A DNA stretch of 58,785 bases from a virus. Taxonomy: Duplodnaviria; Caudoviricetes. Each line of letters begins with the position of its first letter. Positions within the stretch are counted from its first letter, which is position 1. Shown in pieces: positions 32,682 to 57,071 of the stretch. The notes under the pieces were generated by a model. It was not told the origin of the DNA. It saw nothing but the letters and a program-made list of their open reading frames with translations, and searched no databases. Both the position numbers and the translations under genes were made by a program. Location of the stretch: IMG/VR virus record IMGVR_UViG_3300021507_000132, positions 1 to 58,785 of that record. One strand, written 5' to 3'.

Positions 32682-33611
32682 TTATAATTTCTGATTTTGT
32701 TTTTTGAATTTTTTTCCTATTTCTTGTCCAATTCTTTTTTTAACAGCTTTTTCCAGTTTTTTTAACATTTCACTATCAAAATCTCCTTTTACTTTTAGTC
32801 TTTCCATAAACCAATTTACAACTCTCGCAGTCTTTTTGCTTATGTCTTCTCTAGTGCCAATGCAAGCTCTTTCTACTAAATCAAGATATTCTTTAAATTC
32901 TTTGTCTGTGAATCCTGCCTTTAATCCAAGTTCTGGTTCTGCATAACCTTGTAATACATGATCTAATATCACGTTTTCTGGTCTGGATTTCGGAACTTTC
33001 TTTATCACTTTTTTAATCCTGTCTTTAAACTCTTCAGGACAATCTTCCCATTTGTATTTCAATATTTTATTTCCGTCTACGGATTTCAAAACTACACCTT
33101 CGCAATATTCTGGCAATTTTTTCATTTCCTTTTTCAGTTTTTTCAGATTGCTAAACAAACCAATATTTCCAATAAAGTTCAAATCAAAAGTCTTACAGAG
33201 ATTTTCAACGACTTCAGCATTCAAAAACCTTGTCTTTTCTGGTCTTCTCAAATTCATGATGTCAAAAACAAAATAGTCAAAATCTTTATCACCTTTATAA
33301 TTGCTCATTGTATTCTTGCCAACAACTTCCATTACAAGCACTAGATTGGGATAGACTCTGAAAAACCTTTCCAGTTTCTTGCCAATGTTTTCTCTTATTA
33401 GATTGTTGGTCTTTTCGTCAATTAAACCACCTCTCAAAAATGCCACCCAATCTTTATCTACTTTTGCTACTCTCACGTTGTAACCGTTAATCTTCTGTTG
33501 AGCAAACATTGGTTCTTCTAATTTCACTAAATGCAGTAATTTTGGATACGGAGGTATAATTGTGTCTCCCACTTTTACTCTCCCCAAACTGCTTATTATT
33601 TCTGCTCTCAT
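32682..33611 (-). CDS. ATP-dependent RNA ligase (archaeal Rnl3/Pab1020-like)
   Basis: QQKINGYNVRV, FLRGG, MEVVG, FVFDI, EGVVLK, ILKY. Confidence 0.82.
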   Translation of the reverse strand: MRAEIISSLGRVKVGDTIIPPYPKLLHLVKLEEPMFAQQKINGYNVRVAKVDKDWVAFLRGGLIDEKTNNLIRENIGKKLERFFRVYPNLVLVMEVVGKNTMSNYKGDKDFDYFVFDIMNLRRPEKTRFLNAEVVENLCKTFDLNFIGNIGLFSNLKKLKKEMKKLPEYCEGVVLKSVDGNKILKYKWEDCPEEFKDRIKKVIKKVPKSRPENVILDHVLQGYAEPELGLKAGFTDKEFKEYLDLVERACIGTREDISKKTARVVNWFMERLKVKGDFDSEMLKKLEKAVKKRIGQEIGKKFKKQNQKL

Positions 33612-34195
33612 TTTAATTCCAAACAATCACAAACTTTCCTAAGTCTGTAATAAAGATTAGGAATTTCGGCAGCAGAAAATCCATTCACGCTGTTTAACAA
33701 ATCAACAAATTCACTTTTGGTTTTGACAAGTCCTGCTTCTGCCATTGCCAAATACAAAATTGCCAAAGAAGTATACTTTGAATACAATAGAGAATATTTG
33801 CCTTGTTCTCTTATCAACTTCAAATAATAATTGGCTTTCCTTTTTACTTTGCCATTGCATTTTAACAATTTCTCATATTTTTTCAAAAACTCGTCAGCAG
33901 AAGCTGGTCTTACATTCAGATTTATTGTTTGTTTGATTTTTCTGCTCACTTTAGAAACTCGTCTGACGGGTGTATTTGCAATGCTGCTTAAATCCGAAAT
34001 TGCAACAGGATAATTCAAAGACCTTAAACCAACATACACCAATCCGCAAGCTATATCTTTAGTATCATGCAAAGCGATAAATTTTTCCTTAACAATTTTC
34101 TCATATAAATCTAATACTCTCTGCTTTTGTTTTTTATTGACTTCTAATGCTGCAAAAATATGTTCCAAATGTTCCAATATATTCTTGTTTCTCAT
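33608..34195 (-). CDS. TFB/TFIIB cyclin-repeat protein lacking the zinc ribbon
   Basis: ACGLVYVGLR..YPVAISDLS..LNVRPASADEFL..LAILYLA two cyclin-like repeats. Confidence 0.7.
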   Translation of the reverse strand: MRNKNILEHLEHIFAALEVNKKQKQRVLDLYEKIVKEKFIALHDTKDIACGLVYVGLRSLNYPVAISDLSSIANTPVRRVSKVSRKIKQTINLNVRPASADEFLKKYEKLLKCNGKVKRKANYYLKLIREQGKYSLLYSKYTSLAILYLAMAEAGLVKTKSEFVDLLNSVNGFSAAEIPNLYYRLRKVCDCLELK

Positions 34196-39006: not shown

Positions 39007-39051
39007 TCTCTTTTCTTTTCTTTTTGTTTTTTTATATTTGTTTTTTTGAAT

Positions 39052-39549: not shown

Positions 39550-39568
39550 GAAATAAAGGCGTTCAATT

Positions 39569-39682: not shown

Positions 39683-40233
39683 TATATAAATAATTTTGAT
39701 TTGAATGCTTAATATTTAAATAATATTTAAATGTTTTTAGTATTTTCTATGATTTTTGAGGTTTTGAAGCATAATAATTATGCTTATTTTTAATACCATT
39801 TAAATAATATATAAATATTCTCTTTTAAAAAGTCATTTATTTAAATAAAATATATATGCTTTTTTAGTATATTTTTAATGCTTTTAATATGGGTTTAATT
39901 GATTAAAAAATATAGAAAAATAAAATTTCAAGTAATTATGTTTATTTTTACTCAAGACTAAATTTAATACATTAACAAAAATAAACATAATTATTAAGAG
40001 TGGGTTTTGGTGAAGGCTGGGTGAGGGAGTGTAAGTATCCCCCACCCAGATTTTACAATTGAATAGTTAAACCAGCTAGATTTTATTCTAAATAGTTAAT
40101 CCTTCAGCCAGATTTTACAATTAAATCGTTATTATCTATCTTCTCTAGATTTTAATTTATATTAAACAATAATATTTTTCTATTATGAAAAAAGGAGTTA
40201 TTAAAAGAATTAAAAAAATGAATAAAACAATAA

Positions 40234-42493: not shown

Positions 42494-42550
42494 ATATGAA
42501 TTTGGAGTCTGTTATTAGTTTTGAGAATCTAGTGAAAATTCTATCGCAAT

Positions 42551-43591: not shown

Positions 43592-43633
43592 TTTTATTTT
43601 TTTTAGTTTTTTTCAAACTTATTGTTTTTGAAT

Positions 43634-44902
43634 ATGAAAAATATAAATGTTGTAAAAGATACAATTCCTTTTGGTTATGCCAAATCATACATATACAAGC
43701 AAGCATTAAACAGACTATCACCATATTTTGTGCATTATCAGCATGAAAGAGCTGCTTATTCTGATTTAATGAGTAATATTATATATTTGCCATTCATTGA
43801 ACCATTAGACTTTGGTGATTTAAAAGTATTGTTAGAGCATGAAGAAGGTCATTTCAAAATTACAAAAGAAGATGCAAAAGTGCCTGTAAGCTTAGATATT
43901 ACAAAAGCAAGAAAGGTTTTGAATATTTTGGAAGATATGCTGGTAAATGAAAGTATACCTAGAAATAGATTAGAAAGAGTATTCAAAAAATTGGGTGGAG
44001 AAAGTTTACAAATCACATTATGGAGCCAATACAGCAAAGACGAAAAAGAAAGAGTTGTAAATAGATTAAAAGGTAAATTATTTAAAGATTTAGACACTAA
44101 AGAAATAATAAAAACAATTGAAACAACAATAAAAGACAGAAAGTCTTTTGATGGTGTAAATAGATATGTAAACACGCATTTTGAAAAATTTAAAAAGTTT
44201 TACAATATATTTAAAAGTGATTTACCTAGAGACATACCTGGTAACGGTCCCGCAGAGTATAATTCAGGTTATTATTTACCAGATGTCGGGCTTACAAACA
44301 AATTCAGAAAAATATTTCAAAATTTAAAAGTTGATGTAGAATACATTGGAAACAAAGAGCAATTTTATGGTAAAAGAATAAACAGAAAATATTTAGAAAG
44401 CTTGGTATGTCTTAAACCATTTCTACAACGAGTCAGTTCTCATATATTTTCAAGACCTAAAGTTTTGTTGTTATTGGATTGTTCTGGAAGCATGATAGGG
44501 CAACCAGAAATAAAAGCAAAAAGTTTCATAGCAGCTTGTTTAGATACTCTTGATGCTACTCTTATAGGGCATAATCAATATTATCATGTTGTAACAAAAA
44601 ACAAAACTGAAGCAAGCAAACTGCCAATGACTGGAGATGAATGTTTTGACAAATTGAAACCAGAAGATTATAGCAGTGATGTATTTGTTGTAATTTCAGA
44701 TTTAGACATAAGCAGTGGTGAAGCAAGAGGTTTGCTTAGATTTGGAAAGCATGTTAAAGCGAAATATAAATATTTATTGGTTTGCTCAACTGATTATTAT
44801 TCTGCTTATCCTAGTTTAAATGAAGTTTATAAAAGGCATTTTGTTGGTGATCCAAAACAGTATATTGAATTTGCTAAAAAATTGACAAACAATTTAATAT
44901 GA
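43634..44902 (+). CDS. HExxH metallopeptidase-like + vWA domain protein (MoxR partner)
   Basis: HEEGH..LNILED; LLLDCSGSM MIDAS; VISD. Confidence 0.8.
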   Translation: MKNINVVKDTIPFGYAKSYIYKQALNRLSPYFVHYQHERAAYSDLMSNIIYLPFIEPLDFGDLKVLLEHEEGHFKITKEDAKVPVSLDITKARKVLNILEDMLVNESIPRNRLERVFKKLGGESLQITLWSQYSKDEKERVVNRLKGKLFKDLDTKEIIKTIETTIKDRKSFDGVNRYVNTHFEKFKKFYNIFKSDLPRDIPGNGPAEYNSGYYLPDVGLTNKFRKIFQNLKVDVEYIGNKEQFYGKRINRKYLESLVCLKPFLQRVSSHIFSRPKVLLLLDCSGSMIGQPEIKAKSFIAACLDTLDATLIGHNQYYHVVTKNKTEASKLPMTGDECFDKLKPEDYSSDVFVVISDLDISSGEARGLLRFGKHVKAKYKYLLVCSTDYYSAYPSLNEVYKRHFVGDPKQYIEFAKKLTNNLI

Positions 44903-45207
44903 GTTGGGAAACATTGGTTGTTGGACATATCCAGTTTAAAGAGAAAATAGACAGAAAAGTGAAGAAACAAATACTAGAAGAGTTAGAAGAAGTCGTTGAA
45001 TGCGAAATAAAATATGACAGAAAATGGCATGAGTACGCATTTCAAGACGTTAATTGGACATCTCACGTCTCTGGTGAAAATATAGTGAAAGTGATTGAGA
45101 AATACAAAAAACACATAAAATACATTGCTGTTTCAGTGTTTTATTTAAATGAACCGCACGAGAATATTACAATGGAAGATGGAGAATTGAAAGCACGTTT
45201 AATTTAG
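44899..45207 (+). CDS. hypothetical protein
   Basis: ATGA-coupled ORF. Confidence 0.6.
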   Translation: MSWETLVVGHIQFKEKIDRKVKKQILEELEEVVECEIKYDRKWHEYAFQDVNWTSHVSGENIVKVIEKYKKHIKYIAVSVFYLNEPHENITMEDGELKARLI

Positions 45208-45456
45208 TCCAAAAATTTGCGATTTTCTGGATCATGCTTATCGCTTGAATATGGAAAGTCTAAATATAAAGAATTGGAAAAAATTGTCAGAAGACGAAAA
45301 ATTTGACAAAATAATTAAAGCACTAACAGAAGAAAAAACACTGATTGTTGATGGAAAAGTAGTAATAAGCAGCAAAAACTATGTATTGTTTGATTTTCTT
45401 GCGAGCAACTTAGAGATATTTAACAGAATCCTTCATGAATGGCATTTGTATTGAAA

Positions 45457-45591
45457 ATGGAAGAAGATTGGGAAAATTTTAAGTTGAGTGAAGAAGAAGA
45501 GAAGTTTGAACGGGGATTAATCAGTCAAAAAGAGTATGCGAAGTATGTAAAGAAAAAGTTGAAGAAAGTTTTTGAAAAAGTAGAATTATAA
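45457..45591 (+). CDS. small SHOCT-like protein (44 aa), paralog of 39569-39682
   Basis: KLSEEEEKFERGLISQKEYAKYVKKKLK. Confidence 0.6.
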   Translation: MEEDWENFKLSEEEEKFERGLISQKEYAKYVKKKLKKVFEKVEL

Positions 45592-45603
45592 CACTGTTAT
45601 AAT
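45585..45603. promoter_or_regulatory. 19-bp perfect palindrome ATTATAACACTGTTATAAT
   Basis: Repeated at 49683 and 32573. Confidence 0.65.
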
Positions 45604-45645
45604 CTTAAAGCCAGACAGTCAATTGGCTGTCTGGCGAGATTGAAT

Positions 45646-46363
45646 ATGGAAGCCAAAACTATATGGAACATCAGAGAGTTGAAAAAAGAAAGAGGAGGAA
45701 TAAAACGATTTAGAGTGTATTGGAGTGAGACAAAAACAGATGTAAAGCGTGGTTATAGCATTGTAGAAGCAGCAAACGAAGACGAAGCTGAACGGGCATT
45801 TTGGCATGGAGACATTATTGATGAAGTAGAAGAAGACATTGATGTGGGTTGTTGGGAAGATTTACAAGTAGATGAGATTGAAGAAATTGATTGAATATGA
45901 TAGACAAAACTGTATGGAATATAAAGGAATTAAAGGGTGAAAAAGAAGAAGGTACAAAGTTGTTCAGAATAGATTGGACAGAAGAATATAGAGATTATGG
46001 TCATGCAATTGTTAGAGCAAGAAACATAGAAGAAGCTAAAAAGAAGTTTTTGGAAAATGATTGTGAATCTAATGACGTAGATGATTCAGAGTTCATTGAC
46101 AGTTGGATAGATGAAATTGAAGAAATAAATTGAATTGAAGAATGAATATGGTAAAAAAATTAAAAAGCAAAAAAGAAAGTGGTTTGAAGACATTTGAAGT
46201 GAAATGGACGGTAGAATGTAGAAAACAAGGTCACACAATTGTTAAAGCACGAGACACAGGCGAAGCTAAAAAGAAATTTTGGGCAAATGATTGTAAAGAT
46301 GACATAGTAGATGATGAAGAATTCATTGATTGTTGGATAGATGAAGTTGAAGAAGTAGATTAA
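45646..46363 (+). other. three tandem paralogous small acidic genes (45646-45894, ~45897-46133, 46142-46363)
   Basis: Shared F.(V/I).W....G..IV.A....EA...F...D and (V/I)DE(I/V)EE(I/V) pattern. Confidence 0.8.
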
Positions 46364-46434
46364 TTTTTGTTTTGTTTTTGCTTTTTTTGAAGCCCTAGCA
46401 GTGATATTGCTGCTAGGGCAAAAAAGGTGAAAAC

Positions 46435-46695
46435 ATGGAATGGAACGTCAATCCAAATAGAGTGACAGTAACTATACAGTTGCCAGAAGGCACATACACT
46501 AAAGAGTTTGACAGGAATACAAAATTGGCAGATGCAGTGATGGAAGTAGCACAAGAATACAATTTATCTAATGTTACTGTTAGAGATTCCAACGGTATGG
46601 AACTTGATGATAGTGAAGAAAACAAAAATAAAACTTTAGGAGCATTGGGAGCAGTAACAATATCAGCAAAAACTGTGGGAGCTGGCTTTCAGTAA
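46435..46695 (+). CDS. ubiquitin-like (beta-grasp) protein
   Basis: 86 aa; strand-strand-helix pattern; ends AKTVGAG-FQ; AGGTGA RBS; adjacent E2/JAB/E1. Confidence 0.7.
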   Translation: MEWNVNPNRVTVTIQLPEGTYTKEFDRNTKLADAVMEVAQEYNLSNVTVRDSNGMELDDSEENKNKTLGALGAVTISAKTVGAGFQ

Positions 46696-46739
46696 TTGAA
46701 AGCCATAATTTGTTTTTTTGTTTTTTTAATTTTTTTGAT
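46684..46739 (+). terminator. stem-loop plus T-tracts after Ubl gene
   Basis: GGCTTTCA-GTAAT-TGAAAGCC followed by T runs. Confidence 0.55.
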
Positions 46740-46753
46740 ACTCCAATAGCGAC

Positions 46754-47497
46754 ATGCTGTTGGAGCAAATTAACATGGATTGGAAACTGGAAGTTGAAAA
46801 AATAAATAAGTTAAAAGAAGAAAATAAAAGATTAAAGACTGAGTTAGAGGCTACAAATAAAGCATTAGCAGTAGAAACAACAAATAAACAGTATTTAAAA
46901 GAAGAAATAGCACAATTAAAGCAACAATTACACGAAATTGAGTCTAAATATCAATTAATACATTATAGAGCAGTTCCAGAGTGGCTTACTAATGAAGATA
47001 TGATAAAGCATAATATCATTTTAATGCCGTTTAAAGGTTGTTTGTATATATTGAAGAAAGCAGATATTGTTATTAACAGCATAAAATTTTGTTATTCTGA
47101 AAAAATACACAAGTTGCCAAAAGTATATCATCTGCCTAATAAGTTGTATATTGGGTTATGTATAGCAAATAACAGTGTAGTTCATAGTGGAGTATTCTTT
47201 AAAAATCACAAATTATCTAGGTATATTTTTGCTCATTCTGATGATTATATATGTGCAACTTATTCTACTAATATTTCAAGTTTAGAAGATTATTTAAGAG
47301 CAATCAAGTTTATTTTAATGAGTTTTGAAACGTTAAATTTGCAATCTACATTTGACCCTCATCGTTTTAATAAGAGTTTTAAAAAGATATTTCTTGACAT
47401 TTTAAATGAAGCTATTAAATTTGCTCCTCGTGAAGCAAAAGGAGTAAATGGTGTGCTTTGCGTGAATAATCATGAATTTGACCCTGAAACTATCTGA
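46754..47497 (+). CDS. coiled coil + divergent E2-like domain
   Basis: FAHSDDYIC resembles the E2 H..IC active-site segment; LNLQS resembles the downstream N..S; operon context. Confidence 0.5.
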   Translation: MLLEQINMDWKLEVEKINKLKEENKRLKTELEATNKALAVETTNKQYLKEEIAQLKQQLHEIESKYQLIHYRAVPEWLTNEDMIKHNIILMPFKGCLYILKKADIVINSIKFCYSEKIHKLPKVYHLPNKLYIGLCIANNSVVHSGVFFKNHKLSRYIFAHSDDYICATYSTNISSLEDYLRAIKFILMSFETLNLQSTFDPHRFNKSFKKIFLDILNEAIKFAPREAKGVNGVLCVNNHEFDPETI

Positions 47498-47499
47498 AT

Positions 47500-48240
47500 A
47501 TGTCGTGGGAAATAGATAATGAAGATAAATTAGTAAGCGAAAAGTGTCCAGAAATGGAAAAAGAAGGCAAAGAAGTTGTGTTAGAAAATAATGTAGTTGG
47601 CAAAATAATCACATTGTTGAACAAGTATCCAGATTTGGAATGGGGTGCGTATTTGATTGGTGAAGAACAAAAAGACAAATTTTTGATTAAAGATTTGACA
47701 TTAATGAAGCAAGAAGTAACTGGAACAACAGTAGAATTTGTAGAAGAGGATTTTCCAAAGAATTGCATTGGCTGGATTCATAGTCATAATTCAATGGACG
47801 CATTTCTGTCAAAAACAGATGTAAAAACAGCAATGCTGTATAAAGTGTCAATAGTAGTAAATAATGCTTTGAATTTTGTTTGCAGAGTTAAAAAGCAATT
47901 GCCTTGCGGCAGAGTTACTTTAGTGCCTTCAAAAGTAATATTACAAGGCATAGATGTTGATACAAGCAAAATTGTTGAAAAACCAAAGAAAGAATCTATT
48001 GTAATAGTAGACCAGTCATTTCAAAATATTTGTCCAGTTTGCGGTTGCAAATTGAGCAGAAGAAAGAGCAAATTGGCTTATTGTCCTCATTGTCGCAATT
48101 TTGTTCATAGGAGGTGTTTTAATGAAGAGTGGAATATGTGTGCTAACTGCGTAGAAATGTTTAGCAAAGATGAAAAAGAAAGATCTAGAGATTTGTGGAG
48201 AGAGTATTTTAATGAAGATTATCTTGACTTCTACTATTAA
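47500..48240 (+). CDS. JAB/JAMM metalloprotease fused to C4HC3 RING-like finger
   Basis: LEWGAYLIG, GWIHSHNSMDAFLSKTD; CPVC..CPHC....H..C..CANC. Confidence 0.85.
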   Translation: MSWEIDNEDKLVSEKCPEMEKEGKEVVLENNVVGKIITLLNKYPDLEWGAYLIGEEQKDKFLIKDLTLMKQEVTGTTVEFVEEDFPKNCIGWIHSHNSMDAFLSKTDVKTAMLYKVSIVVNNALNFVCRVKKQLPCGRVTLVPSKVILQGIDVDTSKIVEKPKKESIVIVDQSFQNICPVCGCKLSRRKSKLAYCPHCRNFVHRRCFNEEWNMCANCVEMFSKDEKERSRDLWREYFNEDYLDFYY

Positions 48241-48245
48241 AGAGT

Positions 48246-48821
48246 ATGGAAAAAATTGTAATAATAGGTTGTGGTGGTGTGGGAAGCAGAATTGCTGAGT
48301 TTTTAGTCAGAGACAATTTAAGAGAAAAATTCATGGACATGCTTTATTTAGTAGATCATGATACTGTTGAGTTTAAAAATCTGCAAAGACAATTCTATTT
48401 TCAGCAAGACATTAATTTCAAAAAAACAGAAGCTTTAAAAGCCAGATTAAAGAGCATAGACCCAGATTTGGTAATAGTTACTCACAATATACAAGTAAAC
48501 AAAGACAATATAGCGTTGTTTGACAGCAAAATGTTTTGTTTTTGTTGCACTGACGACATTAATGGGAAAAGAGCGATTTCAGAGCATTTTGAGAATTATA
48601 TAATAGCAAGCGTTGATAGAGATGTTGTTGAAATTACTGTAAATCCTGGGTATTTAAATGTCTGGTCTTTTGGAACAGGTTATTCAGTTTATCAAGATGT
48701 TGTAAATAACAATATGGCAGCTATGATTGCGTTTAAATTGTTTAAAAATTATTTGAATGGTATGGAATTGAAAAATGTAAAACTAAATATAAAAGAATTA
48801 ATTGAAAGGTCTATTTCGTAA
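48246..48821 (+). CDS. ThiF/E1-like adenylyltransferase
   Basis: IIGCGGVGS, VDHDTVEFKNLQRQ, KTEAL, CCTD. Confidence 0.9.
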   Translation: MEKIVIIGCGGVGSRIAEFLVRDNLREKFMDMLYLVDHDTVEFKNLQRQFYFQQDINFKKTEALKARLKSIDPDLVIVTHNIQVNKDNIALFDSKMFCFCCTDDINGKRAISEHFENYIIASVDRDVVEITVNPGYLNVWSFGTGYSVYQDVVNNNMAAMIAFKLFKNYLNGMELKNVKLNIKELIERSIS

Positions 48822-48822
48822 T

Positions 48823-49248
48823 ATGGGATACAATACAAACATAATTGTTGATGTAGAGGTAAAAGAAGACAAAATAGAAGAGTTCAGAAAAGCAATAGAA
48901 GAGCAGTTGAAGCAACTGGAAGCTGACGGAAATCACTGGTTTGGGTATTATGCAGATATTGAAGTGGAAGATGATGGCAGAATAGTGTTTGAAGATTATT
49001 GTAGGAAATTTTATGAAGAAGACGCATTTGCTGAATGGTTAGCACCGTATGTAGCAGAAGGGCATATTTGGTGTTATGGCGAAGAACCTGGAGATGTATG
49101 GGCAATACACTTTGACGGTAAAGGAAATTATCGGATTGAAGAAGCTGCAATCGTTTGGGAAGAAGAGAAAGAAGCATTATACAAAATTAGAGAATTGAGC
49201 AAGAAAACTGGGAAATCACCATTAGAATTGGTGAAATCTTTGGAGTGA
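48823..49248 (+). CDS. hypothetical protein
   Basis: MGYNT start; GHIWCYGEEPGDVW motif common in viral hypotheticals. Confidence 0.65.
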   Translation: MGYNTNIIVDVEVKEDKIEEFRKAIEEQLKQLEADGNHWFGYYADIEVEDDGRIVFEDYCRKFYEEDAFAEWLAPYVAEGHIWCYGEEPGDVWAIHFDGKGNYRIEEAAIVWEEEKEALYKIRELSKKTGKSPLELVKSLE

Positions 49249-49682
49249 AAAGCCTAACAAATTTAACATTTAAAACGCAAATCAGCTCAAAACTACAAAA
49301 TTTTAAGGTTTTGAGCATTAATATCACACAGCATAACACTTTTAACAAAGAGTGTAACACTTATAATTATGGAAAAAGACATTACAGAATGGGTATTGAA
49401 AGTATGGCAGGAGAATAGAAAGTTGAAGAACAAAATAAAAGCACTGGAGCAAGAGAATAAAGAATTAAAAGAAAAACTATTTGGGATTGAATACTTATGA
49501 AAATGATAAGTCTAGATCCAGAAGAAGTTAAACTTTTAGCAGAAGGCAAAACCCATCCAGAACTAGAAAAAAAATTAAAGATATTGAAAGCAATATGGGA
49601 AGAGAAAGCAAAAGAAGCTAAATTAGAACAATTGAGAGAATTTGAGAGTGCCTGAAATTTAAAGTTATTTGTTTCAGATTTG

Positions 49683-49701
49683 ATTATAACAGTGTTATAA
49701 T
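49683..49701. promoter_or_regulatory. 19-bp perfect palindrome ATTATAACAGTGTTATAAT
   Basis: Intergenic, 38 nt upstream of the ATPase ATG. Confidence 0.65.
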
Positions 49702-49738
49702 TAAATTGGTGAAAGATGTTTATTCTTGAATTTAAAGT

Positions 49739-50521
49739 ATGCTATATCAATATGAATTGTTAAGAGAATATATAGAAGTATGGAAAAAAAGCAAGGATAT
49801 TCATGGACTGCTTGTTAGTGGGCCAGTAGGTCTAGGGAAAACCTGGTCTGTGGAACAAGCTTTAAAGAATGAAGAATATGTATTAATAAACACTCATATA
49901 ACGCCATTAAAGTTGTATATCAATTTGTATGAAACAAGAAATTCATATTTGGTTGTAGATGATGTGCTGGATCTGTTTAAAAACAAAGACACGAGTGGTT
50001 TATTGATAGCAGCAACTCAAACTGGGACCAAACCAAGAATATTGACGTGGCATACAACTTCAGAAAAATTAGAAGTTCCGCCTCAGTTTGAGTATAACGG
50101 TAAAATTGCGATAATATGCAATAAATTACCTGTGCATTTAGAGCATTTAAAGTCAAGGTGTTTCTATTTTGAATTGAAATTGAATTACAATGAGATATTG
50201 GCAAAATTGGAAGAAATACGCAAAAGCATGAGAATGCCTAAGAAATTATTAGAGTTTATAAAAGAAAATACAAACGAAGCAACTCCTGAAGAAGTATTAA
50301 ATATAAGATTGCTAATCAAATTAAATAGTTTATACAAAAAATACCCTAAAAAATGGAAAGACATGGGTTTATATTTGATTAAACAAGATAAAAGGTTATA
50401 CATTCTTAAAAAGATATTGGATAAGTATGATAATGTATCTGACCAGATAAAAATGTATGAGCAACTGACTGGCAGGAAAAGAAGTTCATTTTATAAAGAC
50501 AAGCAGGAATTAAAATTATGA
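49739..50521 (+). CDS. viral P-loop ATPase with C-terminal HTH-like tail
   Basis: GPVGLGKT, LVVDD, IICN, LKSR. Confidence 0.8.
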   Translation: MLYQYELLREYIEVWKKSKDIHGLLVSGPVGLGKTWSVEQALKNEEYVLINTHITPLKLYINLYETRNSYLVVDDVLDLFKNKDTSGLLIAATQTGTKPRILTWHTTSEKLEVPPQFEYNGKIAIICNKLPVHLEHLKSRCFYFELKLNYNEILAKLEEIRKSMRMPKKLLEFIKENTNEATPEEVLNIRLLIKLNSLYKKYPKKWKDMGLYLIKQDKRLYILKKILDKYDNVSDQIKMYEQLTGRKRSSFYKDKQELKL

Positions 50522-50769
50522 AGAAGTCTAAACAATTGGAGGAATTGTTCAAGTTGGCAGACGAAATTTTCAACTATGTGCTTCAGAAGTGTGCAATAGG
50601 CAATGAAGTAAATTTTGACGAGTTGGATATTGTGATAGACAGGTTGAAACTGTTAAAAGACAGACTTATTGCATTTGAGACTAATCAGAGATATACTGTT
50701 GAGGAAATCAAGAAAGCTTTGAAAGAAGTGCGTAAAGATGATCGTAGATATGTAGAATATATAGATTAA
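50518..50769 (+). CDS. hypothetical protein
   Basis: ATGA-coupled ORF. Confidence 0.55.
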   Translation: MKKSKQLEELFKLADEIFNYVLQKCAIGNEVNFDELDIVIDRLKLLKDRLIAFETNQRYTVEEIKKALKEVRKDDRRYVEYID

Positions 50770-50907
50770 TATGAGTGAAATATTCTTTGTTTGGGGCATG
50801 ATGGAATTAGAGTATCAAGAGCAGATTAGAGAAAGCATTAGAGATGAATTAAAGGAAAAAGGTTGGAGTGAAGTAGAGATTGAAGATTATTTATCTCAGA
50901 TAGGACT

Positions 50908-51111
50908 ATGAAAGCGTTTATTGAATGCGGAATTTGTAAGAAAGCATTTGAGTGTAAATTGTCTGAAAGTCCTGATTCTTGTGCTAAAAAGCATAAAATG
51001 TTTGTTTTAACGTTTGTGGATACCAGCACAGATTATTCTGAAAGCATATTTGTATGCAGAGAATGTTTTTTCAAGCATTTAAATATCAAAATATTTAATA
51101 GAAGTTTTTGA
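50908..51111 (+). CDS. small zinc-finger protein
   Basis: CGIC and CREC motifs. Confidence 0.55.
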   Translation: MKAFIECGICKKAFECKLSESPDSCAKKHKMFVLTFVDTSTDYSESIFVCRECFFKHLNIKIFNRSF

Positions 51112-51114
51112 AAC

Positions 51115-51378
51115 ATGAGAGAAAGAGTTGAAGAAAAAGCAGAAAGATTGGTAAGAGAAGGAAAAGTTAAACTTGTTAGCAATAAAAAGTCTGTGATATT
51201 TGAAGTTGAAGGTTCTACGGAAAAACACACAGTTATATTTAAAGATGCTGGTTTTAGTTGCGATTGTATGTGGTGGAGTTTGAGATCTACTCCGTGCAGT
51301 CATGTTTTAGCAGCAATGATATACGCAAAAAACAACAATATTAAATTGCCTGGTTTATTCATAAATGAATTATCATGA
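51115..51378 (+). CDS. SWIM zinc-finger protein
   Basis: FEVEGS..HTV..CDC..PCSHVLA. Confidence 0.85.
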   Translation: MRERVEEKAERLVREGKVKLVSNKKSVIFEVEGSTEKHTVIFKDAGFSCDCMWWSLRSTPCSHVLAAMIYAKNNNIKLPGLFINELS

Positions 51379-51634
51379 ACGAAGCAGATAGACAAACATT
51401 GGTAGTGATATTAAGCGAAATCAGAAAAGAACTGGAAAAAGCTAAGAAGTTCCATGACAGGACAGACATGTTAGTATATATTGACTTTGCTCTTTCAGAC
51501 GTTAGAAAAGGTTTGGCTTTCTTGAACAAATTAAAAAAATAGTCAATTGAATATATATTTTAGACAACAGAAAACTATTTATATATAAATATTATTTATA
51601 TTTATGGCAAGAAAGTTCGTAATGGTGATTCAGA

Positions 51635-52165
51635 ATGAGAGGAAAGATAAAAGCGATATTTGAGAAGGAGAAAACCTACGGAATCACTTTTAATGGCAAT
51701 GACTGGTATGTTGGATTTATATCTGATAAACCAGATTGGTTGATTAAAGGAGAATCAGAAGGCACAGAAGTTGAATTTGAATATACAAAGCATGAATCTG
51801 ATGGTAGGGTGTATAACAATATTGTTAAAGGCAGTCTAAAGAAAGTGGAAGTTGAAAAACCAAAAGAACCTGAACAAAAAGCAAATAATTCTAAATCTTT
51901 TATAAAAGACAGAATAAATGAATTAAACAAACAAGTGTTAGAATTAAGCAAGCAATTGGTGTATGAAAAGACAAAACAACATGATTTGGAAAGGAGAGAT
52001 ATAAGAAAATCTGTTTGTTTGAAAGCAAGCATAGACTTAATGAGTAATATGGAATCTCTGTTTAAAAACAGAGAATTATCTAATGAAGATCTTGTAAAGT
52101 TAGTATTGTATTTTGCTAAAGAATTTGAGAAGTATTTTGAAAATGAAATAAAGATTCAAATATGA
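51635..52165 (+). CDS. OB-fold / ssDNA-binding-like protein
   Basis: YGITFNGNDWY..GTEVEFEY..VYNNIV; IRKSVCLKAS. Confidence 0.5.
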   Translation: MRGKIKAIFEKEKTYGITFNGNDWYVGFISDKPDWLIKGESEGTEVEFEYTKHESDGRVYNNIVKGSLKKVEVEKPKEPEQKANNSKSFIKDRINELNKQVLELSKQLVYEKTKQHDLERRDIRKSVCLKASIDLMSNMESLFKNRELSNEDLVKLVLYFAKEFEKYFENEIKIQI

Positions 52166-54115
52166 CAGAAAATAAAGAAGAATTTTTGAAGAAATTAGCA
52201 GAGTTTAAGCCAAGTTTTGAAGACGTTGTTAAAGCTATCAATCAATTTGCAGGTGGCAGCATAGATTGGATTGCAGAAGTAGTTACAAAACATCATGAAG
52301 ACATGGTGCGTGAAATAATTGCAAAAGCAGAAGAAAAAAAAGCATCGCCTTTTATAATATTTAGTGTGCTTGCTGCGATAATGCAATCGCATGCTGAAGA
52401 TGTAAAAACACTTGCTAAATACGCAGGGGATAGAGAACTGGATCAGATATGCAAATTAAGAGGCATAACTCGTGAAGAAGTAAATGAAGTGCTTAAAGGC
52501 AAAAAAGTTGTTGATTATATAAGTTAATTATGGCGAGAAAGTTTACGGTTGAGGAGATTAAGAAAATTGCACAGATATGCTATAATTACAAGTGGAGAAT
52601 TGGAAAAGATAATTTTGAAGGTTTGTTTGCTTTCCTGCAAGTATTGGATATTATGGAAAAGAAAAATTTGAGCATAAAAGCATTGCCTGATTATTTAAAC
52701 ATTAAGAGAGAATTGGTGATTAACGCAGAAGATGAAAAATATATTGTAGAAAAATATCCTTTATAAAAAGCGAAACATGAGAGAAAAAGGAGAATAATAG
52801 ATGTAAGGCGATTTGGAAATTGGTTGATAATAGCTTACAAAGGTCCTTGGGGCATATCGTTTGAAAAGCTTAAAATCAATGGTGGAGAAAATGAGTGAAG
52901 TGAAAACGGAAGATATAAGAAAAGAATTAAACAAATGTTATAGAAAATTAAGAGATTTACGAAGTAAGACAAAAGTCGGAACAAAGAAGCACAGATGTAT
53001 TTCAGTTATGATGAATTGGCTTTGGTTTTTGAGACAAATTACATTACAGCATTCTAAAAATTTAATGTTTTTAGACATTTCGGATGTTATAAAAGTAGAA
53101 GAATGCAAGACAGGAAACAAGGTGGGAATTTGTGTTAAAGGTGAAAGAAAATGAGTGAAGAAAAAACTTTGGATTTGGATATAAAGTTAAAACCTGTTCT
53201 CAGGTTTAAATGGGGTAATGAAGAAGGTTTTAACAACTTCAGAAAAGGTTATGAGAAAGGATTTGAAGAAGCACAAGAAATTATTATAAGAGAAGTCAAA
53301 CAAAGAATTCAGGAGGTAGTTCAAGGATTATTACGAGAGATCGAAAAGCAAGAAGAAAAATTTTCCTGATGAGGTGAAAAGATGAATGAATTAGCAGCAG
53401 ATATATTGGGAATTTTGTTTTTGATTTGGTTTCTTTTAGTCGTTCCTCTATTAATCAAGTATCCTGCTGACTATAAATCAGCTATTATTATTGTATATCT
53501 CTTTCTGGCGTTATTGATAATGTTTAAGAAGTAATTATGGCAAGAAGTAGTTTAGAAGGGAAATGGTATGGAAAAGTAGATGAAGTAAGAATTGTAACTG
53601 GAACGAGCGGGACTTACAGAATTGAAGTTGTAACAGAATTATTAAGAAAAGAAGAATTTGATGAAATGCTAAATGATATTCTTGCTTTGATCCGAGCTCC
53701 TAAAAGTGTTGAGGAAATTTAAATGGTGATAAGTATGGATTTAGTAACCGAAAGAGAAAGGATTGCGATTGCAGAAGCAATGATAAAATACGGAGGCAGT
53801 TTTGTTAAAGCACTGGGACAGGCACTTTTGTTAGCAGATATACACAATGTCAGAAGAATAAAAAGTGCTTTCAAGGAGTACTGGGAAGAATACAAGAAAT
53901 GGGCTAAAAAAGATGGATATGAATGGGAAGAATTTGAGTGGGAAGCAATAGAAAACAGAAAAGAGAAAGAGAAGCAAAAATTGGAACTTATGAAAGCAAA
54001 TATTAAGTCTGCCATAGCGATTCTTGAAACTGCAGCGGAAATGGATAGTAAAGAAGACATGATGGCAGGCATGTATGAAGCGATCAGGTTGTTAAAAGAT
54101 ATTGATAAATTGTAA
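52162..54115 (+). other. cluster of small hypothetical genes (52162-52527, 52530-52766, 52861-53154, 53151-53369, 53537-53722, 53723-54115)
   Basis: Co-oriented, coupled ORFs; several GGTGA RBS. Confidence 0.6.
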
Positions 54116-54116
54116 T

Positions 54117-54812
54117 ATGAAAGGTAAAAGGTCGTTTGATTTGGCGATAACTATATGCATTATTTACCTTACAATTTCAATGCTTCGGCTTCACTACCAA
54201 GAAGAAACTATTGTAAACAGATTAGATAGTTTAAATGACACTATACAGCAAATTGAAGTGAATTATACAAGAATCACAGACAAACAAACAAGTATGAGTA
54301 GTAATTTGTCTCAATACATAGCAAACATATCTCAGCAAATAGAAGATTTACAAACAGAAATATGTGATTTGAAAAAAGAACTACAAGCAGAACACAAACG
54401 TAATAATGAATTAAAAAATCAACTGGAAAGTGTAAAAAAATCAAAAGGATTGATAAAACCAACATACAAGCAATTGAAAAGTTTTGTTTTAAGAGACGAT
54501 ACTGACTTGTTGAAGTGGAGCAATGATTTTGATTGCACAGAATTCAGCAACAAATTCATTGAAAATTTTGCTGAAGAAGGTTTCTTTGCTTGCACAACAG
54601 AGTTAGATTTAATTATTGATGGTGAAGCAAAAGGACATATTATTGTTGCTATTGACACTAAAGACAAAGGTTTGTATTATGTAGAACCGCAAAGTGATTC
54701 AATATTCTCAGCAGATGAATTACGGGTTGGTAAAAATTATTGTAGTATTGTGGATTGGAATTGTAATTGGGAGATAACTAAAATATCAAGTTGTTTTGAG
54801 TTGAAAATATGA
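54117..54812 (+). CDS. membrane-anchored coiled coil + transglutaminase/papain-like domain
   Basis: TM, coiled coil, FDCTEFS..GHIIVA..VEPQSD triad. Confidence 0.7.
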   Translation: MKGKRSFDLAITICIIYLTISMLRLHYQEETIVNRLDSLNDTIQQIEVNYTRITDKQTSMSSNLSQYIANISQQIEDLQTEICDLKKELQAEHKRNNELKNQLESVKKSKGLIKPTYKQLKSFVLRDDTDLLKWSNDFDCTEFSNKFIENFAEEGFFACTTELDLIIDGEAKGHIIVAIDTKDKGLYYVEPQSDSIFSADELRVGKNYCSIVDWNCNWEITKISSCFELKI

Positions 54813-55249
54813 GAGCCAAGATCATTAAGATAATTAATACTGAAATAGTAAAACATAAAGACTTGGCTGAAAAGTATTTGTCTTGCGTTACAGATAGTTA
54901 TAAAAAGAAATATTCTTTCATAAACTGGTTATTTTCATTTATAAAGCCTAATAAAGCGGACAAAACAGACCTTGTCAAAAGTTATTTCAAAAATTACAAA
55001 TATCATAAAATTGCCTCAGCAGAATTTGAAATATTGAAATATGTTGTCAGTCATGTAATACAAAGACTGATTAAATTAAAGAAAAATAAACAAACTATTA
55101 AAGCTGAAGTTTTAGAACTAATTGACAGAAAAATGAATGCCATTAATCGATATATAAAATCCTCACAAATAGCTTCAACAGAGTATGAATGTTATTTACG
55201 ACTGTATTATGGTTACAATAGTATAAAATTACAAATAGAAAAATTATGA
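54809..55249 (+). CDS. hypothetical protein
   Basis: ATGA-coupled on both sides. Confidence 0.55.
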   Translation: MRAKIIKIINTEIVKHKDLAEKYLSCVTDSYKKKYSFINWLFSFIKPNKADKTDLVKSYFKNYKYHKIASAEFEILKYVVSHVIQRLIKLKKNKQTIKAEVLELIDRKMNAINRYIKSSQIASTEYECYLRLYYGYNSIKLQIEKL

Positions 55250-55937
55250 TATATGAAAAGGATGTAAGGAATAAACAAAGTGTGAACGCGGGGATTGATG
55301 AAGTAATATTACAAGCGAAATGCTTGTAATACTTTAACGCAAATCCCCGGTTCTAGGAAGCATAGTATTGTGCGTGGCTTTAATACCAGACAAAGATGAA
55401 GAGTATTTGAGAAACAGAGGTGTAAAAGACTCTAAATTAATTGAAAGGAACAGATTACACAGACTGGCAAAAGAATTGATGGAAACTTACAAATACAAAG
55501 TTGTTAAAATAAAGCCGCATATTATCAGCAAAGCTGACAATTTGAACTTGTTGGAAATTGAATATGTAATCAAATTAATCAAATGGGTTAACCAGTTTGA
55601 GCCAAAAAATATCTATATGGATTGTTTAACAGCAAATGTCAATACTTGTTGGAACTATTTTCTAGATCTTGGATTTAAACAAGATAACCTAAAAATTGTT
55701 CCGAAAGCAGATGAGAAGATTATAAGCGTTCAGGCAGCAAGCATTATTGCTAAGTATCATTCAGATAAAGAAATAGAGCATTTGCAAAAAAAGTATCCAG
55801 ATATGGGTTCTGGAGAACCTTCAGATAGAAAAACAATTGAGTTTCTGAAAAAGCATTTGGACAACCCTCCATTAGATTGCATCAGAACGAGCTGGATTAC
55901 ATTCAAGAGACTAAAGCAGAAACAAGAAAATGACTAG
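55246..55937 (+). CDS. rnhB: RNase HII, split by a 32-nt intron (exons 55246-55305 and 55338-55937)
   Basis: Spliced product AGIDEVRKSPVLGSIVLC..GVKDSK..LNLLE..YMDC..KADE..AASIIAK..GSGEPSD..RTSW. Confidence 0.88.
55306..55337 (+). other. bulge-helix-bulge (archaeal endonuclease-type) intron
   Basis: GAAG/CTTT 4-bp helix, bulges TAA and AAC, 10-bp intron stem TATTACAAGC/GCTTGTAATA, exon stem GGGGATT/AATCCCC. Confidence 0.82.
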
Positions 55938-56077
55938 CCCCATTCTGTCCAGGCAGCTGGTTGTTTTCTTGCTGTTTATTTATTTTTGTAAACAAAAGTA
56001 TTTAAAGGTTTGTTTATTTTAATAAACAATTACAATTCGTTAATAAAGTTATTTAAATTCGCAATTCAAGGATTATT

Positions 56078-56302
56078 ATGAGAAGAAGCAAGTTCCCAGA
56101 ATTTATGGGATGGTTTAATTCTCTTGAAATGGGAGAGATGCCGAACGTTTCGCAGGCACAAATAACTCTTCACATCAATTATGTTGAGTTGCGGAATTAT
56201 TATGAACTTCTCAGAATGGCTGGTTGTATTATGACAAAAGGCAATACGAAAAACAAGAAATATTTTAAGATTTCTAATATAAGAATTCCAACATATTATT
56301 GA
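56078..56302 (+). CDS. small wHTH-like hypothetical protein
   Basis: ORF with upstream TTTAAA promoter-like elements and downstream T-tract. Confidence 0.55.
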   Translation: MRRSKFPEFMGWFNSLEMGEMPNVSQAQITLHINYVELRNYYELLRMAGCIMTKGNTKNKKYFKISNIRIPTYY

Positions 56303-56389
56303 ACATTTTTTTATTTTTTGCGTTTCAGTCTGTACACTCTATATATTTTAAAGGGCAATTTTTAAAGGGCGATTTGTATAAGATCTCAT

Positions 56390-56770
56390 TCATTGGTAGT
56401 ATACAGCTTCTTCTAATTTTTGCAGTATATACTCTTGTATGGTTTTTCCTTCTTTGAGTGCTTTTATATCCAAATCTTGCATGAAACTGCTAGACACTTC
56501 TAATATTATCCTTTCTTTCAAGCCTTTTTTTAGAAACCAGTCCCCATGTCTGTTTCTATACACTAAATTTCTACTAGCTAAGTGATTAAGTAAGTGACTG
56601 ATAGACACTGGATGATAACCTGTCATTCGTGCTATATCTTTCAATCTCAATCCACGTAAGCTGTTGATCGTATGTTTTTCTAATACTTGTAGTATTGCTA
56701 ATTCTGCTTGAGTAAGCCCTTCATATCCCTTCCATACATAATTGTCTTTAGGTCTGCCGCTTCGTGCCAT
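56390..56770 (-). CDS. winged-helix (MarR-like) + RHH-like regulator
   Basis: LTQAELAILQVL..LKDIARMTGY..SISHLLNHLASRNLV. Confidence 0.75.
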   Translation of the reverse strand: MARSGRPKDNYVWKGYEGLTQAELAILQVLEKHTINSLRGLRLKDIARMTGYHPVSISHLLNHLASRNLVYRNRHGDWFLKKGLKERIILEVSSSFMQDLDIKALKEGKTIQEYILQKLEEAVYYQ

Positions 56771-57071
56771 AATAATTATTATTATATTATTATTAATAAG
56801 GCATTTTTGTCGAACAAGTACAATATACATTCAAACTCGCTCTTAACTACTTAAGCATAGTAGCAGTAGTTTGAGTGCGTCTCTACTAGAAATAGTATAT
56901 GTTAATAATAATATAATAATAATTATTCTTCGTTACTACCAACCAATCATACTTTTGCTATATATTCCATATTTTTGCTCCAGCTTCAGTTTGCAGGGGT
57001 TGTAAAAATTAAAGTATAGAAAATTTATAACATTTATGGAATTTATGACAATTTACTATCTGACAATAGTA

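Follow-up and report, generated by a model that had tools for sequence, protein, structure and literature searches.

The question raised by this locus is how a tailed virus of archaea can make RNase HII from a gene whose catalytic motif and main body are written in different reading frames. We favor, with a probability of about 0.8, the reading that positions 55306–55337 constitute an archaeal bulge-helix-bulge (BHB) intron, of the type known from tRNA, within the viral RNase HII mRNA. Judging from the sequence, the enzyme is probably made only after the tRNA-splicing enzymes of the host have mended this mRNA.

An RNase HII gene split within its catalytic motif

The window analyzed here is the whole of a 58,785-nt virus record, in which the RNase HII gene (PF01351) is split at 55305/55338 (Table 1). 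A PF01351 profile search of the genome gave 93.5 bits. Exon 2 alone matches profile positions 10–198 with an E-value of 1.3e-26 (94.1 bits; cut-off 25.8), and RNase HII structures in the PDB with E-values down to 4e-24. Exon 1 starts at ATG 55246 or at the in-frame GTG 55282. The frame opened by the ATG comprises 27 codons, passes through NAGIDEV and is closed by TAA 55327–55329. The remainder of the enzyme is encoded two frames away from exon 1, in a frame that opens no earlier than 55338, directly behind TAA 55335–55337, so that each of the two exon frames meets a stop within the putative intron. The first-pass annotation had described the GIDE motif as out of frame with the remainder of the enzyme and followed by a stop, and the reading frames bear this out.

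Table 1. Coordinates of the RNase HII locus and of the TFB-like gene in the 58,785-nt window.
Feature	Position	Strand	Basis and remarks
Upstream ORF, 146 aa	54809..55249	+	No family match; stop overlaps the ATG of exon 1
Exon 1 of RNase HII	55246..55305	+	Reading frames; ends ...NAGIDEV
Whole hairpin (putative cassette): intron plus exon codons of the outer helix	55283..55354	+	Near-identical in all intron-bearing alleles
BHB core	55300..55338	+	Sequence, fold, pair probabilities
Putative 32-nt BHB-type intron, phase 0	55306..55337	+	Fold, BHB rule, intron-less alleles
Exon 2 of RNase HII	55338..55937	+	199 codons plus stop; begins RKSPVLGS; PF01351 and PDB matches
TFB/TFIIB-core-like protein	33608..34195	-	Pfam TFIIB and PDB matches

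Removal of 55306–55337 is predicted to join GIDEV directly to RKSPVLGS. Residue 11 of the PDB RNase HII 1uax aligns with residue 2 of exon 2, and the intron-less protein P0004 aligns without gaps to GIDEAGRGP of 1eke; the predicted joint is therefore exactly collinear. Exon 1 holds the first two catalytic residues (D and E), and the later aspartates, those of YMDC and KADEK, are matched by aspartates of 1uax. Joining the exons would complete the catalytic acidic residues, which we take to be, in archaeal RNase HII, an N-terminal D-E plus two later aspartates: the D-E lies in exon 1 and both aspartates in exon 2.

Metagenome relatives provide an independent view of the boundary. Among the 80 loci kept, ten are close relatives (74–97% amino acid identity); eight of these carry the insert, while it is precisely absent from the other two, L009 and L011. 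In L011, which shares 97% protein identity with the viral enzyme, MINAGIDEV runs straight into RKSPVLGS, and the proteins P0004 and P0005 are likewise uninterrupted exactly where the intron sits. By homology, exon 1 ends at 55304 or 55305, and by the BHB rule at 55305, such that the predicted cut sites match the boundary that the intron-less alleles indicate on their own. It had been proposed earlier that cuts behind the second base of either bulge would remove 55306–55337 and leave a collinear joint, and that intron-less homologs should be compared; the joint is identical to the sequence of L011 and collinear with the PDB structures of RNase HII, and all four intron-less sequences lack the insert at just this point. 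No locus encoding a close relative was found in the viral contig collection, the sequence pattern of the intron core is absent from both the viral and the genome contig collections, and the RNase HII has no match among GenBank phages.

The hairpin and its proposed processing

The central helix of the BHB core (55300–55303 with 55332–55335; GAAG/CTTT, including one G.U pair) has pair probabilities of 0.93–0.95. It is flanked by two 3-nt bulges, 55304–55306 (TAA) on the 5' side and 55336–55338 (AAC) on the 3' side. The inner helix of 10–11 bp (55307–55316 with 55322–55331) is closed by a 5-base loop (55317–55321). The outer stem, which is formed by exon codons, consists of one U.G pair, a 2x2 mismatch and then 8+4 bp (55289–55296 with 55342–55349, and 55284–55287 with 55350–55353). 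Every element of the BHB described in the first-pass annotation, including a slightly relaxed outer stem, was recovered where it had been placed. The hairpin folds at −31.9 kcal/mol (z = −6.22), with none of 200 shuffled sequences folding as well, and the same hairpin in allele L008 has a z-score of −6.8.

The fold also defines how far the motif conforms to the canonical form. The strict BHB register costs 3.5 kcal/mol relative to the minimum-energy fold; the U55299–G55339 pair at the 3' bulge has an ensemble probability of 0.03, and the register of the 5' bulge one of 0.2. Since the 3' bulge is present only in this higher-energy register, the modeled motif is of a relaxed form on its 3' side, and not a textbook BHB. 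Relaxed BHB motifs are reported to need EndA types of broad specificity (PMC5829648). BHB geometry alone is not rare and is unspecific: in 2 of 10 sequences simulated from the window with a Markov model, the top chance match scored equally high. Geometry scans of the window for additional BHB introns returned 698, then 91 and then 126 candidates (the last with loose geometry plus an open frame); because of this lack of specificity, no further intron was drawn from them. No match to Rfam families or to tRNAs was found in the window.

In the proposed mechanism, the primary transcript would fold into a long hairpin with exon codons as its foot and the intron as its top. EndA of the host would cut both of the 3-base bulges flanking the 4-bp helix, and host RtcB would then ligate the exons. 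Only after ligation would the catalytic D-E of exon 1 be in frame with the rest of the enzyme. We infer the cleavage by EndA, the ligation by RtcB and the host origin of both enzymes. A search for sequencing runs covering positions 53000–57000 returned no RNA run.

The TFB-like protein matches Pfam TFIIB with an E-value of 5.5e-5 (23.5 bits, just below the cut-off of 23.6) and the PDB entries 1ais_B and 1d3u_B with an E-value of 7e-6 over residues 7–166, and by this similarity marks the virus as archaeal. Given an archaeal TFB-like factor, the host should have EndA. Neither EndA nor RtcB was found in the 58.8-kb record, which fits a dependence on host enzymes, although the record is only ~78% complete. 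The virus also encodes an Rnl3-type RNA ligase related to Pab1020. The best relatives of its TnpB (57% identity) are in archaeal metagenome-assembled genomes (MAGs). The best relative of its terminase (37% identity) is in a genome of the phylum whose own RNase HII genes (rnhB) are frequently interrupted, as described below; matches of the terminase to GenBank phages reach about 26% only. The terminase was not found in the four MAGs holding the best TnpB relatives, nor was a virus-like RNase HII in the three genomes with terminase relatives, where only cellular copies at 32–39% identity were found. The phylum of the host is therefore only weakly indicated. Apparent stops inside the terminase match of genome G299 were considered as an intron and rejected, as they lie behind the end of the gene.

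Selection on the interrupted gene and alternative readings

The dN/dS ratios of exon 2 range from 0.024 to 0.034 over seven allele pairs with dS between 0.18 and 1.06 (in five of the pairs both alleles carry the intron; in comparisons with L008 and L009, dS was saturated). By this measure, strong purifying selection maintains the interrupted gene. The 199 codons are free of additional stops and frameshifts in seven full-length interrupted alleles. All eight intron-bearing sequences examined retain NAGIDEV and, across four upstream contexts, an in-frame start (ATG or GTG) located 8 codons ahead of the joint.

These observations bear on the best surviving alternative, which we consider improbable: exon 2 could be translated alone from TTG 55368 into a truncated RNase HII-like protein without the D-E, with the hairpin as a regulatory or terminator-like element and exon 1 as a leader peptide. 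Gene callers do predict precisely this 189-aa ORF (P0003, in a cluster of 27 member sequences), and the dN/dS ratios establish the translation of exon 2 but not its fusion to exon 1. However, translation of exon 2 alone would not account for the retention of NAGIDEV and of its start in eight of eight sequences, or for an exon 1 in L008 that has two synonymous and zero amino acid changes. In addition, the ten codons from 55338 to the TTG match homologues residue for residue, the intron-less sisters encode a contiguous protein, and the downstream catalytic aspartates are kept, which is sensible only for an active enzyme.

Ribosomal recoding, by which a frameshift or a 32-base bypass of the T4 gene 60 type would link the exons without splicing, is less likely still. 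The T4 bypass features a stop near the take-off site, a stable hairpin at the start of the gap, and matched take-off and landing codons. The viral gene shares a stop 7 codons past GIDEV and a stable hairpin where the gap begins, but the would-be take-off codon GTA 55303–55305 has no matching landing codon, and a TAA immediately precedes 55338. A simple frameshift is impossible, since the frame of exon 1 closes at 55329 and that of exon 2 opens only at 55338, behind TAA 55335–55337, leaving no overlap. Furthermore, any product translated into the insert would have extra residues in the catalytic loop, where homologues lack room, and the cut sites obey the same BHB rule that resolves 28 cellular cases. 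Least likely of all is a decaying pseudogene inactivated by a palindromic DNA insertion, as could be suggested by the stops in all frames at the insert and its presence or absence among close alleles, but which is at odds with such low dN/dS at dS values up to about 1 among interrupted alleles, with the intact 199 codons in seven of them, and with an insert that, although non-coding, differs at only 0–3 of 32 positions.

The alignment of the hairpin (9 sequences, 6 distinct rows) has 99.4% of cells paired. Three one-sided changes keep or improve the pairing (U.G to C-G, G.U to G-C and C-G to U.G); none of the 27 pairs is changed on both sides, and L008 has one change that disrupts a pair of the outer stem. 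Third codon positions embedded in the helix are changed at 0–2 of 12 sites, compared to 25–55% elsewhere, in seven divergent allele pairs (p = 0.01–0.035; the pairs are not independent); the close pair L002/L007 shows no difference (0 of 12 and 10%; p = 0.3). The low divergence of the intron noted above is found among alleles whose third codon positions likewise differ by 25–55%. As the sequences are close relatives from few assemblies, this conservation partly reflects shared ancestry.

Relation to known introns and possible mobility

Archaeal tRNA and rRNA introns with BHB boundaries are cut by EndA and joined by RtcB, with relaxed forms allowed (PMC5829648, PMC4090602). They resemble the viral case in having two 3-nt bulges around a 4-bp helix and in the enzymes presumed to act on them. 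The viral case differs in that the substrate is a virus mRNA and the outer helix is built of codons, and its synonymous sites are therefore constrained.

For protein genes, the literature searched, as far as its text was accessible, documents tRNA-type introns essentially in cbf5, in one group of archaea. The BHB intron of the cbf5 pre-mRNA occurs in Desulfurococcales and Sulfolobales, is 16–44 bp long, and its splicing was shown experimentally (Watanabe 2002; Yoshinari 2006; Yokobori 2009, PMC2738675). The first-pass annotation had called protein-coding BHB introns rare in archaea and named cbf5 as the classic example, in agreement with what is in print (PMC2738675, PMC5829648). The cbf5 and viral introns are both short, too short for an endonuclease, have BHB-like bounds within a protein-coding gene, and are present or absent among relatives. 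Both disrupt a catalytic site, and removal is therefore needed for an active enzyme. However, splicing was shown experimentally for cbf5, and the putative viral intron lies in a virus genome and in RNase HII. Moreover, the viral alleles differ in a block of synonymous flanking codons according to the presence of the intron, for which no counterpart was found for cbf5 in the accessible text of PMC2738675. Putative introns of 12 bp in an archaeal rudivirus (Peng et al., as cited in PMC2738675) are likewise short insertions within the protein genes of a virus of archaea. They keep the frame and, according to PMC2738675, may not be spliced, whereas the RNase HII insert shifts the frame and carries stops, and so must be removed.

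Putative BHB mini-introns were also found in the cellular RNase HII genes of DPANN-type and other archaea. Among the 117 RNase HII-bearing genomes of a sampled DPANN-type archaeal phylum, 28 have the gene broken at this same motif. With cuts placed by script behind the second base of each bulge, 26 of these regain G-x-D-E-x-G-R-G; the remaining two (L150 and L169) were fit by eye with the inner-helix criterion relaxed. These putative mini-introns share with the viral one the gene, the catalytic motif, the cutting rule and the size range (15–40 nt). They occupy two other positions, one following the E codon and one within the R codon of DEAGRG; the viral intron falls between these, after the codon following E, and is unrelated in sequence. 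Our searches found no published description of BHB mini-introns in RNase HII genes, viral or cellular.

Exon 2 of the window and of L008 are 71.7% identical at the nucleotide level, yet within the cassette the two differ at just 2 of 36 positions in the flanks and at 1 of 32 in the intron, and the conserved block begins sharply at 55283. Conversely, 11–12 of the 36 flank positions differ between intron-bearing and intron-less sister alleles, compared to 3.4–8.5% of positions elsewhere (Fisher p = 2e-7 to 2e-4); all 12 flank changes between the window and L011 are synonymous. The flanks are thus homogenized among intron-bearing alleles and replaced relative to intron-less sisters, the pattern of co-conversion. 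The hairpin appears to behave as one cassette with the codons at its base. More weakly, the pattern suggests that recombination transfers this cassette from allele to allele along with the flanking exon sequence.

Phage group I introns are self-splicing and are associated with homing endonucleases; in collaborative homing, a free-standing endonuclease is encoded next to the intron. The viral BHB intron resembles them in interrupting a virus enzyme gene at a conserved site, in its polymorphic presence and in its seemingly co-converted flanks. In the relative L008, an ORF with HNH and HTH domains lies directly upstream. A LAGLIDADG-wHTH gene is located upstream in 8 of 27 cellular cases. However, at 32 nt the viral intron cannot self-splice and would rely on host proteins, and no endonuclease gene was detected in the window, where searches for LAGLIDADG_3, HNH and relatives of the L008 HNH protein gave no match. 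Searches of the 146-aa upstream ORF revealed no homing endonuclease signature, and a homologue of this ORF is also located upstream of the intron-less allele L011.

We tentatively propose, at well short of even odds, that the mini-intron and the dozen codons of its outer helix form a selfish cassette of archaeal viruses, which would move between RNase HII alleles via gene conversion triggered by a neighboring free-standing endonuclease (HNH in L008; LAGLIDADG-wHTH in cells). Such a cassette would persist by destroying the target of the endonuclease, located in the best-conserved stretch of the gene; the message would meanwhile be repaired by the tRNA-splicing enzymes of the host. If true, it would be a protein-spliced counterpart of the partnerships between phage introns and homing endonucleases, and would make viral replication genes dependent on host tRNA splicing.

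If the viral mRNA is spliced, a replication or repair enzyme of an archaeal virus relies on the tRNA-splicing machinery of its host, and gene callers would systematically truncate such genes, as in the deposited cluster, which begins at an internal codon. The frequency of interrupted cellular rnhB genes suggests that such introns are far more widespread than published work would indicate. Intron-bearing and intron-less sisters in two clades would then constitute a natural experiment on the gain, loss and movement of tiny introns.

The interrupted RNase HII gene and its hairpin

The virus record (58,785 bases, provirus class, estimated completeness 78%) carries an RNase HII gene in two pieces. 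As the first-pass annotation had pointed out, the GIDE motif lies out of frame with the rest of the enzyme and is followed by a stop. Exon 2 matches PF01351 (94.1 bits, E = 1.3e-26, profile positions 10-198) and 19 PDB sequences (E of 0.01 or below), most strongly an archaeal RNase HII (E = 4e-24). Exon 1 encodes the two N-terminal catalytic residues, and exon 2 supplies the later aspartates. Because residue 2 of exon 2 is placed opposite residue 11 of 1uax in the PDB alignment, and P0004, an uninterrupted protein relative, aligns without gaps to the GIDEAGRGP of 1eke, excision of exactly 32 bases yields a collinear enzyme, with GIDEV joined directly to RKSPVLGS. The same alignments bear out the earlier proposal that cutting after the second base of each bulge in a bulge-helix-bulge (BHB) motif brings GIDE into line with the canonical motif.

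Features of the interrupted gene, its hairpin and two further viral genes
Feature	Position	Strand	Description or basis
Exon 1	55246-55305, ATG at 55246	+	start overlaps the upstream ORF's stop; short frame ending in NAGIDEV
Predicted intron	55306-55337	+	32 nt, phase 0
Stop in exon-1 frame	TAA 55327-55329	+	sequence
Exon 2 (rest of RNase HII)	55338-55937	+	open from 55338 only; two frames away, directly after another TAA
Central helix, 4 bp	55300-55303 with 55332-55335	+	read from sequence
Two bulges	55304-55306 and 55336-55338	+	read from sequence
Inner stem		+	10 bp, 5-base loop; read from sequence
Outer stem		+	made of exon codons; sequence and related alleles
Archaeal Rnl3-type ATP-dependent RNA ligase	32682-33626	-	PF09414; PDB Pab1020 (2vug), E = 3e-10
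TnpB (IS605 OrfB)	11971-13113	+	best genome relatives at 57% identity

The region 55280-55360 folds with a predicted energy of -31.9 kcal/mol (z = -6.22), which none of 200 shuffled sequences equalled. The helix, bulges and stems drawn in the first-pass annotation are present in the sequence, and the central helix is firm (pair probabilities of 0.93-0.95), but the register of the 3' bulge is weak, its closing pair having a probability of 0.03. The 5' bulge may slide (0.2 versus 0.78), and the strict BHB register lies 3.5 kcal/mol above the minimum-energy fold. The viral motif is thus predicted to be a relaxed form of the BHB rather than a textbook one. In two of ten first-order Markov simulations of the window, the top chance hit equalled this motif in score, and a loose scan for geometries that join into a long open frame returned 126 candidates in the window. 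BHB geometry alone is weak evidence, and it is the comparison with related sequences, rather than the shape, that carries the case.

Three other structures were noted. A BHB-like hairpin at 43550-43620 (+), between a MoxR-type AAA gene (42551-43591) and an ORF (43622-44902), would fuse both frames if removed; it has no homology support and is treated as chance. A long hairpin at 55916-55977 (+), probably a terminator, spans the stop codon at the 3' end of the RNase HII gene and scores highly in the geometry scan, as does a large inverted repeat at about 56777-56920, between divergent genes downstream.

Alleles with and without the putative intron

A protein search returned three relatives. P0003, a 189-aa cluster with 27 members, starts at an internal TTG or ATG, which is the gene caller's view of the gene with exon 1 removed. 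P0004 (72% identical) and P0005 (61% identical) are uninterrupted and read AGIDET RKSPVLGS and AGIDEV HKCPVLGS, respectively. In a single metagenome scan, 424 stretches matched, 85 of them encoding relatives, and 80 loci were kept. Ten of these are close relatives (74-97% amino acid identity); eight (L002-L008 and L010) carry the same 32-nt insert in the same place, and in L009 and L011 it is precisely absent. In L011, which has 97% protein identity over the 72 residues covered, MINAGIDEV is directly joined to RKSPVLGS. The comparison with intron-less homologs that had been proposed as a check thus favors the predicted joint, across which L009, L011, P0004 and P0005 all read. On homology alone, exon 1 could end at 55304 or at 55305, since the same base occurs at both ends of the insert; the BHB rule selects 55305. 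Two clades, with a DNA identity of only 72%, each contain alleles with and without the insert: clade A (the window, L002-L007 and L010 with the intron, L011 without it) and a second clade (L008 with the intron, L009 without it).

The selection data indicate a functional gene in spite of the interruption. In exon 2, dN/dS is 0.024-0.034 in seven allele pairs, five of them intron-bearing on both sides, at dS of 0.18-1.06, with dS saturated in comparisons against L008 and L009. No further stop occurs in the 199 codons of seven full-length interrupted alleles. All eight intron-bearing sequences examined retain NAGIDEV, as well as an ATG or GTG in frame eight codons ahead of the joint, and the DNA farther upstream of these falls into four unrelated contexts.

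We consider it likely, at a probability of roughly 0.8, that the transcript folds into the hairpin, that the splicing endonuclease EndA of the host would cut after 55305 and after 55337, and that the host ligase RtcB would join both exons. The product would be an RNase HII of 219 residues (20 from the ATG at 55246 and 199 of exon 2), or a shorter one from a GTG at 55282. Translation of exon 2 on its own is unlikely in view of the selection and exon-1 conservation, which it leaves unexplained. Translational bypass across the 32-base insert would need matched codons, which are missing, and would bring extra residues into the catalytic loop. Ribosomal frameshifting would add residues there as well and, given the lack of any overlap between the frames, is impossible. 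A decaying pseudogene is excluded by the low dN/dS, the absence of further stops and the kept exon 1.

The intron and the exon codons of the outer helix form one conserved block in intron-bearing alleles, with a sharp onset at 55283, the foot of the hairpin. The window and L008 are 71.7% identical in exon 2; they differ at only 2 of 36 flank positions (seven codons of exon 1 and five of exon 2) and at one of 32 intron positions. Among seven divergent pairs, 0-2 of 12 helix third codon positions are changed, compared to 25-55% elsewhere (one-sided Fisher p = 0.01-0.035, the pairs being non-independent); the close pair L002/L007 shows no difference (0/12 versus 10%, p = 0.3). Between intron-bearing and intron-less alleles the flank diverges: 11 of 36 positions differ between L008 and L009, versus 20 of 582 elsewhere (p = 2e-7), and 12 of 36 between each of five clade-A alleles and L011, versus 5.0-8.5% elsewhere (p = 6e-6 to 2e-4), all 12 changes being synonymous between the window and L011. 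The intron-less L009 and L011 differ in the flank as in the rest of the gene (9/36 versus 27%). Two-sided, covarying changes were found in none of the 27 base pairs of the hairpin; of the one-sided changes, three keep or strengthen pairing and one breaks a pair. The close relatives behind these comparisons are few and themselves related. Such conservation would fit selection holding the pairing codons, and it would also fit movement of the whole hairpin among alleles by recombination. Recombination is favored, since sister alleles with 96% identity elsewhere show so large a switch. Upstream of the gene, the DNA of L008 is unrelated to that of L009, which places a mosaic junction there in any case.

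Gene content and host of the virus

The record encodes a terminase, a Mu-type portal, an adaptor and a fibre-like protein, along with an ATP-dependent DNA ligase, two N6/N4 methylases, TnpB and a JAB/ThiF pair. A 195-aa protein (33608-34195, -) matches the Pyrococcus TFB core (1ais_B and 1d3u_B, E = 7e-6, residues 7-166) and falls just below the Pfam cut-off for the TFIIB repeat; its gene overlaps the RNA ligase gene by 19 nt. The best TnpB relatives are in MAGs titled Bathyarchaeia and Aenigmatarchaeota, with bacterial matches at 41% identity or less. The best terminase relative in all searches (37% identity, E = 1e-79) comes from a genome in the same phylum as that Aenigmatarchaeota MAG; the terminase search of genomes gave a match in 5 of 301. 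Based on the TFB-like gene, the RNA ligase and the TnpB and terminase relatives, the virus is taken to be archaeal, and this phylum is only a lead to its host. EndA (PF01974) and RtcB (PF01139) were not found by profile search in the window, which is an incomplete record. A virus-borne RNA ligase near an mRNA that would need RNA ligation is suggestive; the Rnl3-type class seals 3'-OH/5'-P ends, not EndA products.

Other features were observed in the record. Adjacent JAB/MPN deubiquitinase-like (47500-48240, +) and ThiF/E1-like (48246-48821, +) genes are possibly a ubiquitin-like modifier module. Two fusions are unusually large: an 807-aa metallo-beta-lactamase fold and D12 adenine methylase (26759-29182, -), and an 869-aa protein (21488-24097, -) with an ATP-dependent DNA ligase domain confined to its middle. 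At about 39 kb, where the coding strand changes, GC skew goes from about -0.1 to +0.3/+0.4 (39001-54000), and G+C falls to 26% at 39-42 kb. In L007, three TnpB-like genes (203-1285, 1586-2869 and 4618-5829) surround RNase HII.

Putative cellular RNase HII introns and neighboring endonucleases

In-frame D-E is lacking in 19 of the 70 distant metagenome loci: 14 are D-D or E-E variants, three are cut by contig ends, and two (L018 and L042) have GIDEAG out of frame, with unrelated inserts of 34 and 32 nt (L018:437-472; L042:2967-2998). Both contigs look cellular, and the gene adjoins an SMC gene. PF01351 was then searched in 121 genomes of a DPANN-type archaeal phylum (set G002-G123) and matched in 117. 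The best match starts at profile position 6-10 in 22 of these and contains in-frame stops in six; inspection of all 28 loci (L144-L171) revealed G-x-D-E followed by a hairpin insert in every one. In 28 of the 117 genomes, rnhB is therefore broken inside the DEAGRG motif by BHB-type inserts of 15-40 nt. Applied by script, the cutting rule, with a helix of 4 bp and cleavage after the second base of a bulge, restores G-x-D-E-x-G-R-G in 26, with central helices that vary among genomes and intron lengths of 19-37 nt; on visual inspection, L150 (40 nt) and L169 (15 nt) also conform once a single mismatch in the inner helix, or an inner helix of 2 bp, is tolerated.

An ORF of about 340 aa with LAGLIDADG_3 and winged-helix domains (L042:1940-2974, +) runs in frame into exon 1 of L042. 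Of 27 interrupted cellular loci, 8 (L188, L190-L193, L199, L205 and L206) have a homologue of it immediately upstream, compared to none of 20 uninterrupted controls (Fisher p = 0.014; the test reached 1.6 kb at most, and one interrupted locus lacked any testable ORF). Pfam calls LAGLIDADG_3 in 4 of 39 ORFs of interrupted loci versus 0 of 31 of controls. Among the viral alleles, an HNH and HTH ORF (L008:489-1010, +) directly precedes the intron-bearing RNase HII of L008, and its place is taken by unrelated DNA in L009. No LAGLIDADG_3, HNH or relative of the L008 HNH protein was found in the window, whose ORF upstream of RNase HII has no family match and has a homologue preceding the intron-less L011. 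The cassette may thus have been spread by an endonuclease that does not accompany it here.

The rarity of protein-coding BHB introns, with cbf5 as the classic case, agrees with PMC5829648, where the cbf5 papers are those cited for pre-mRNA BHB splicing. PMC2738675 refers to putative introns of 12 bp in a virus of archaea, with splicing not shown. In the openly accessible literature searched, no BHB intron was found described for RNase HII or for a protein gene of a virus, and no paper on the cellular rnhB inserts in DEAGRG was found. The cellular inserts occupy two sites, after the E codon or within the R codon; the viral site lies between them, and its intron resembles neither in sequence. 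At the level of sequence comparison, the cellular cases calibrate the cutting rule and show the RNase HII catalytic motif to be a recurrent target of such putative introns.
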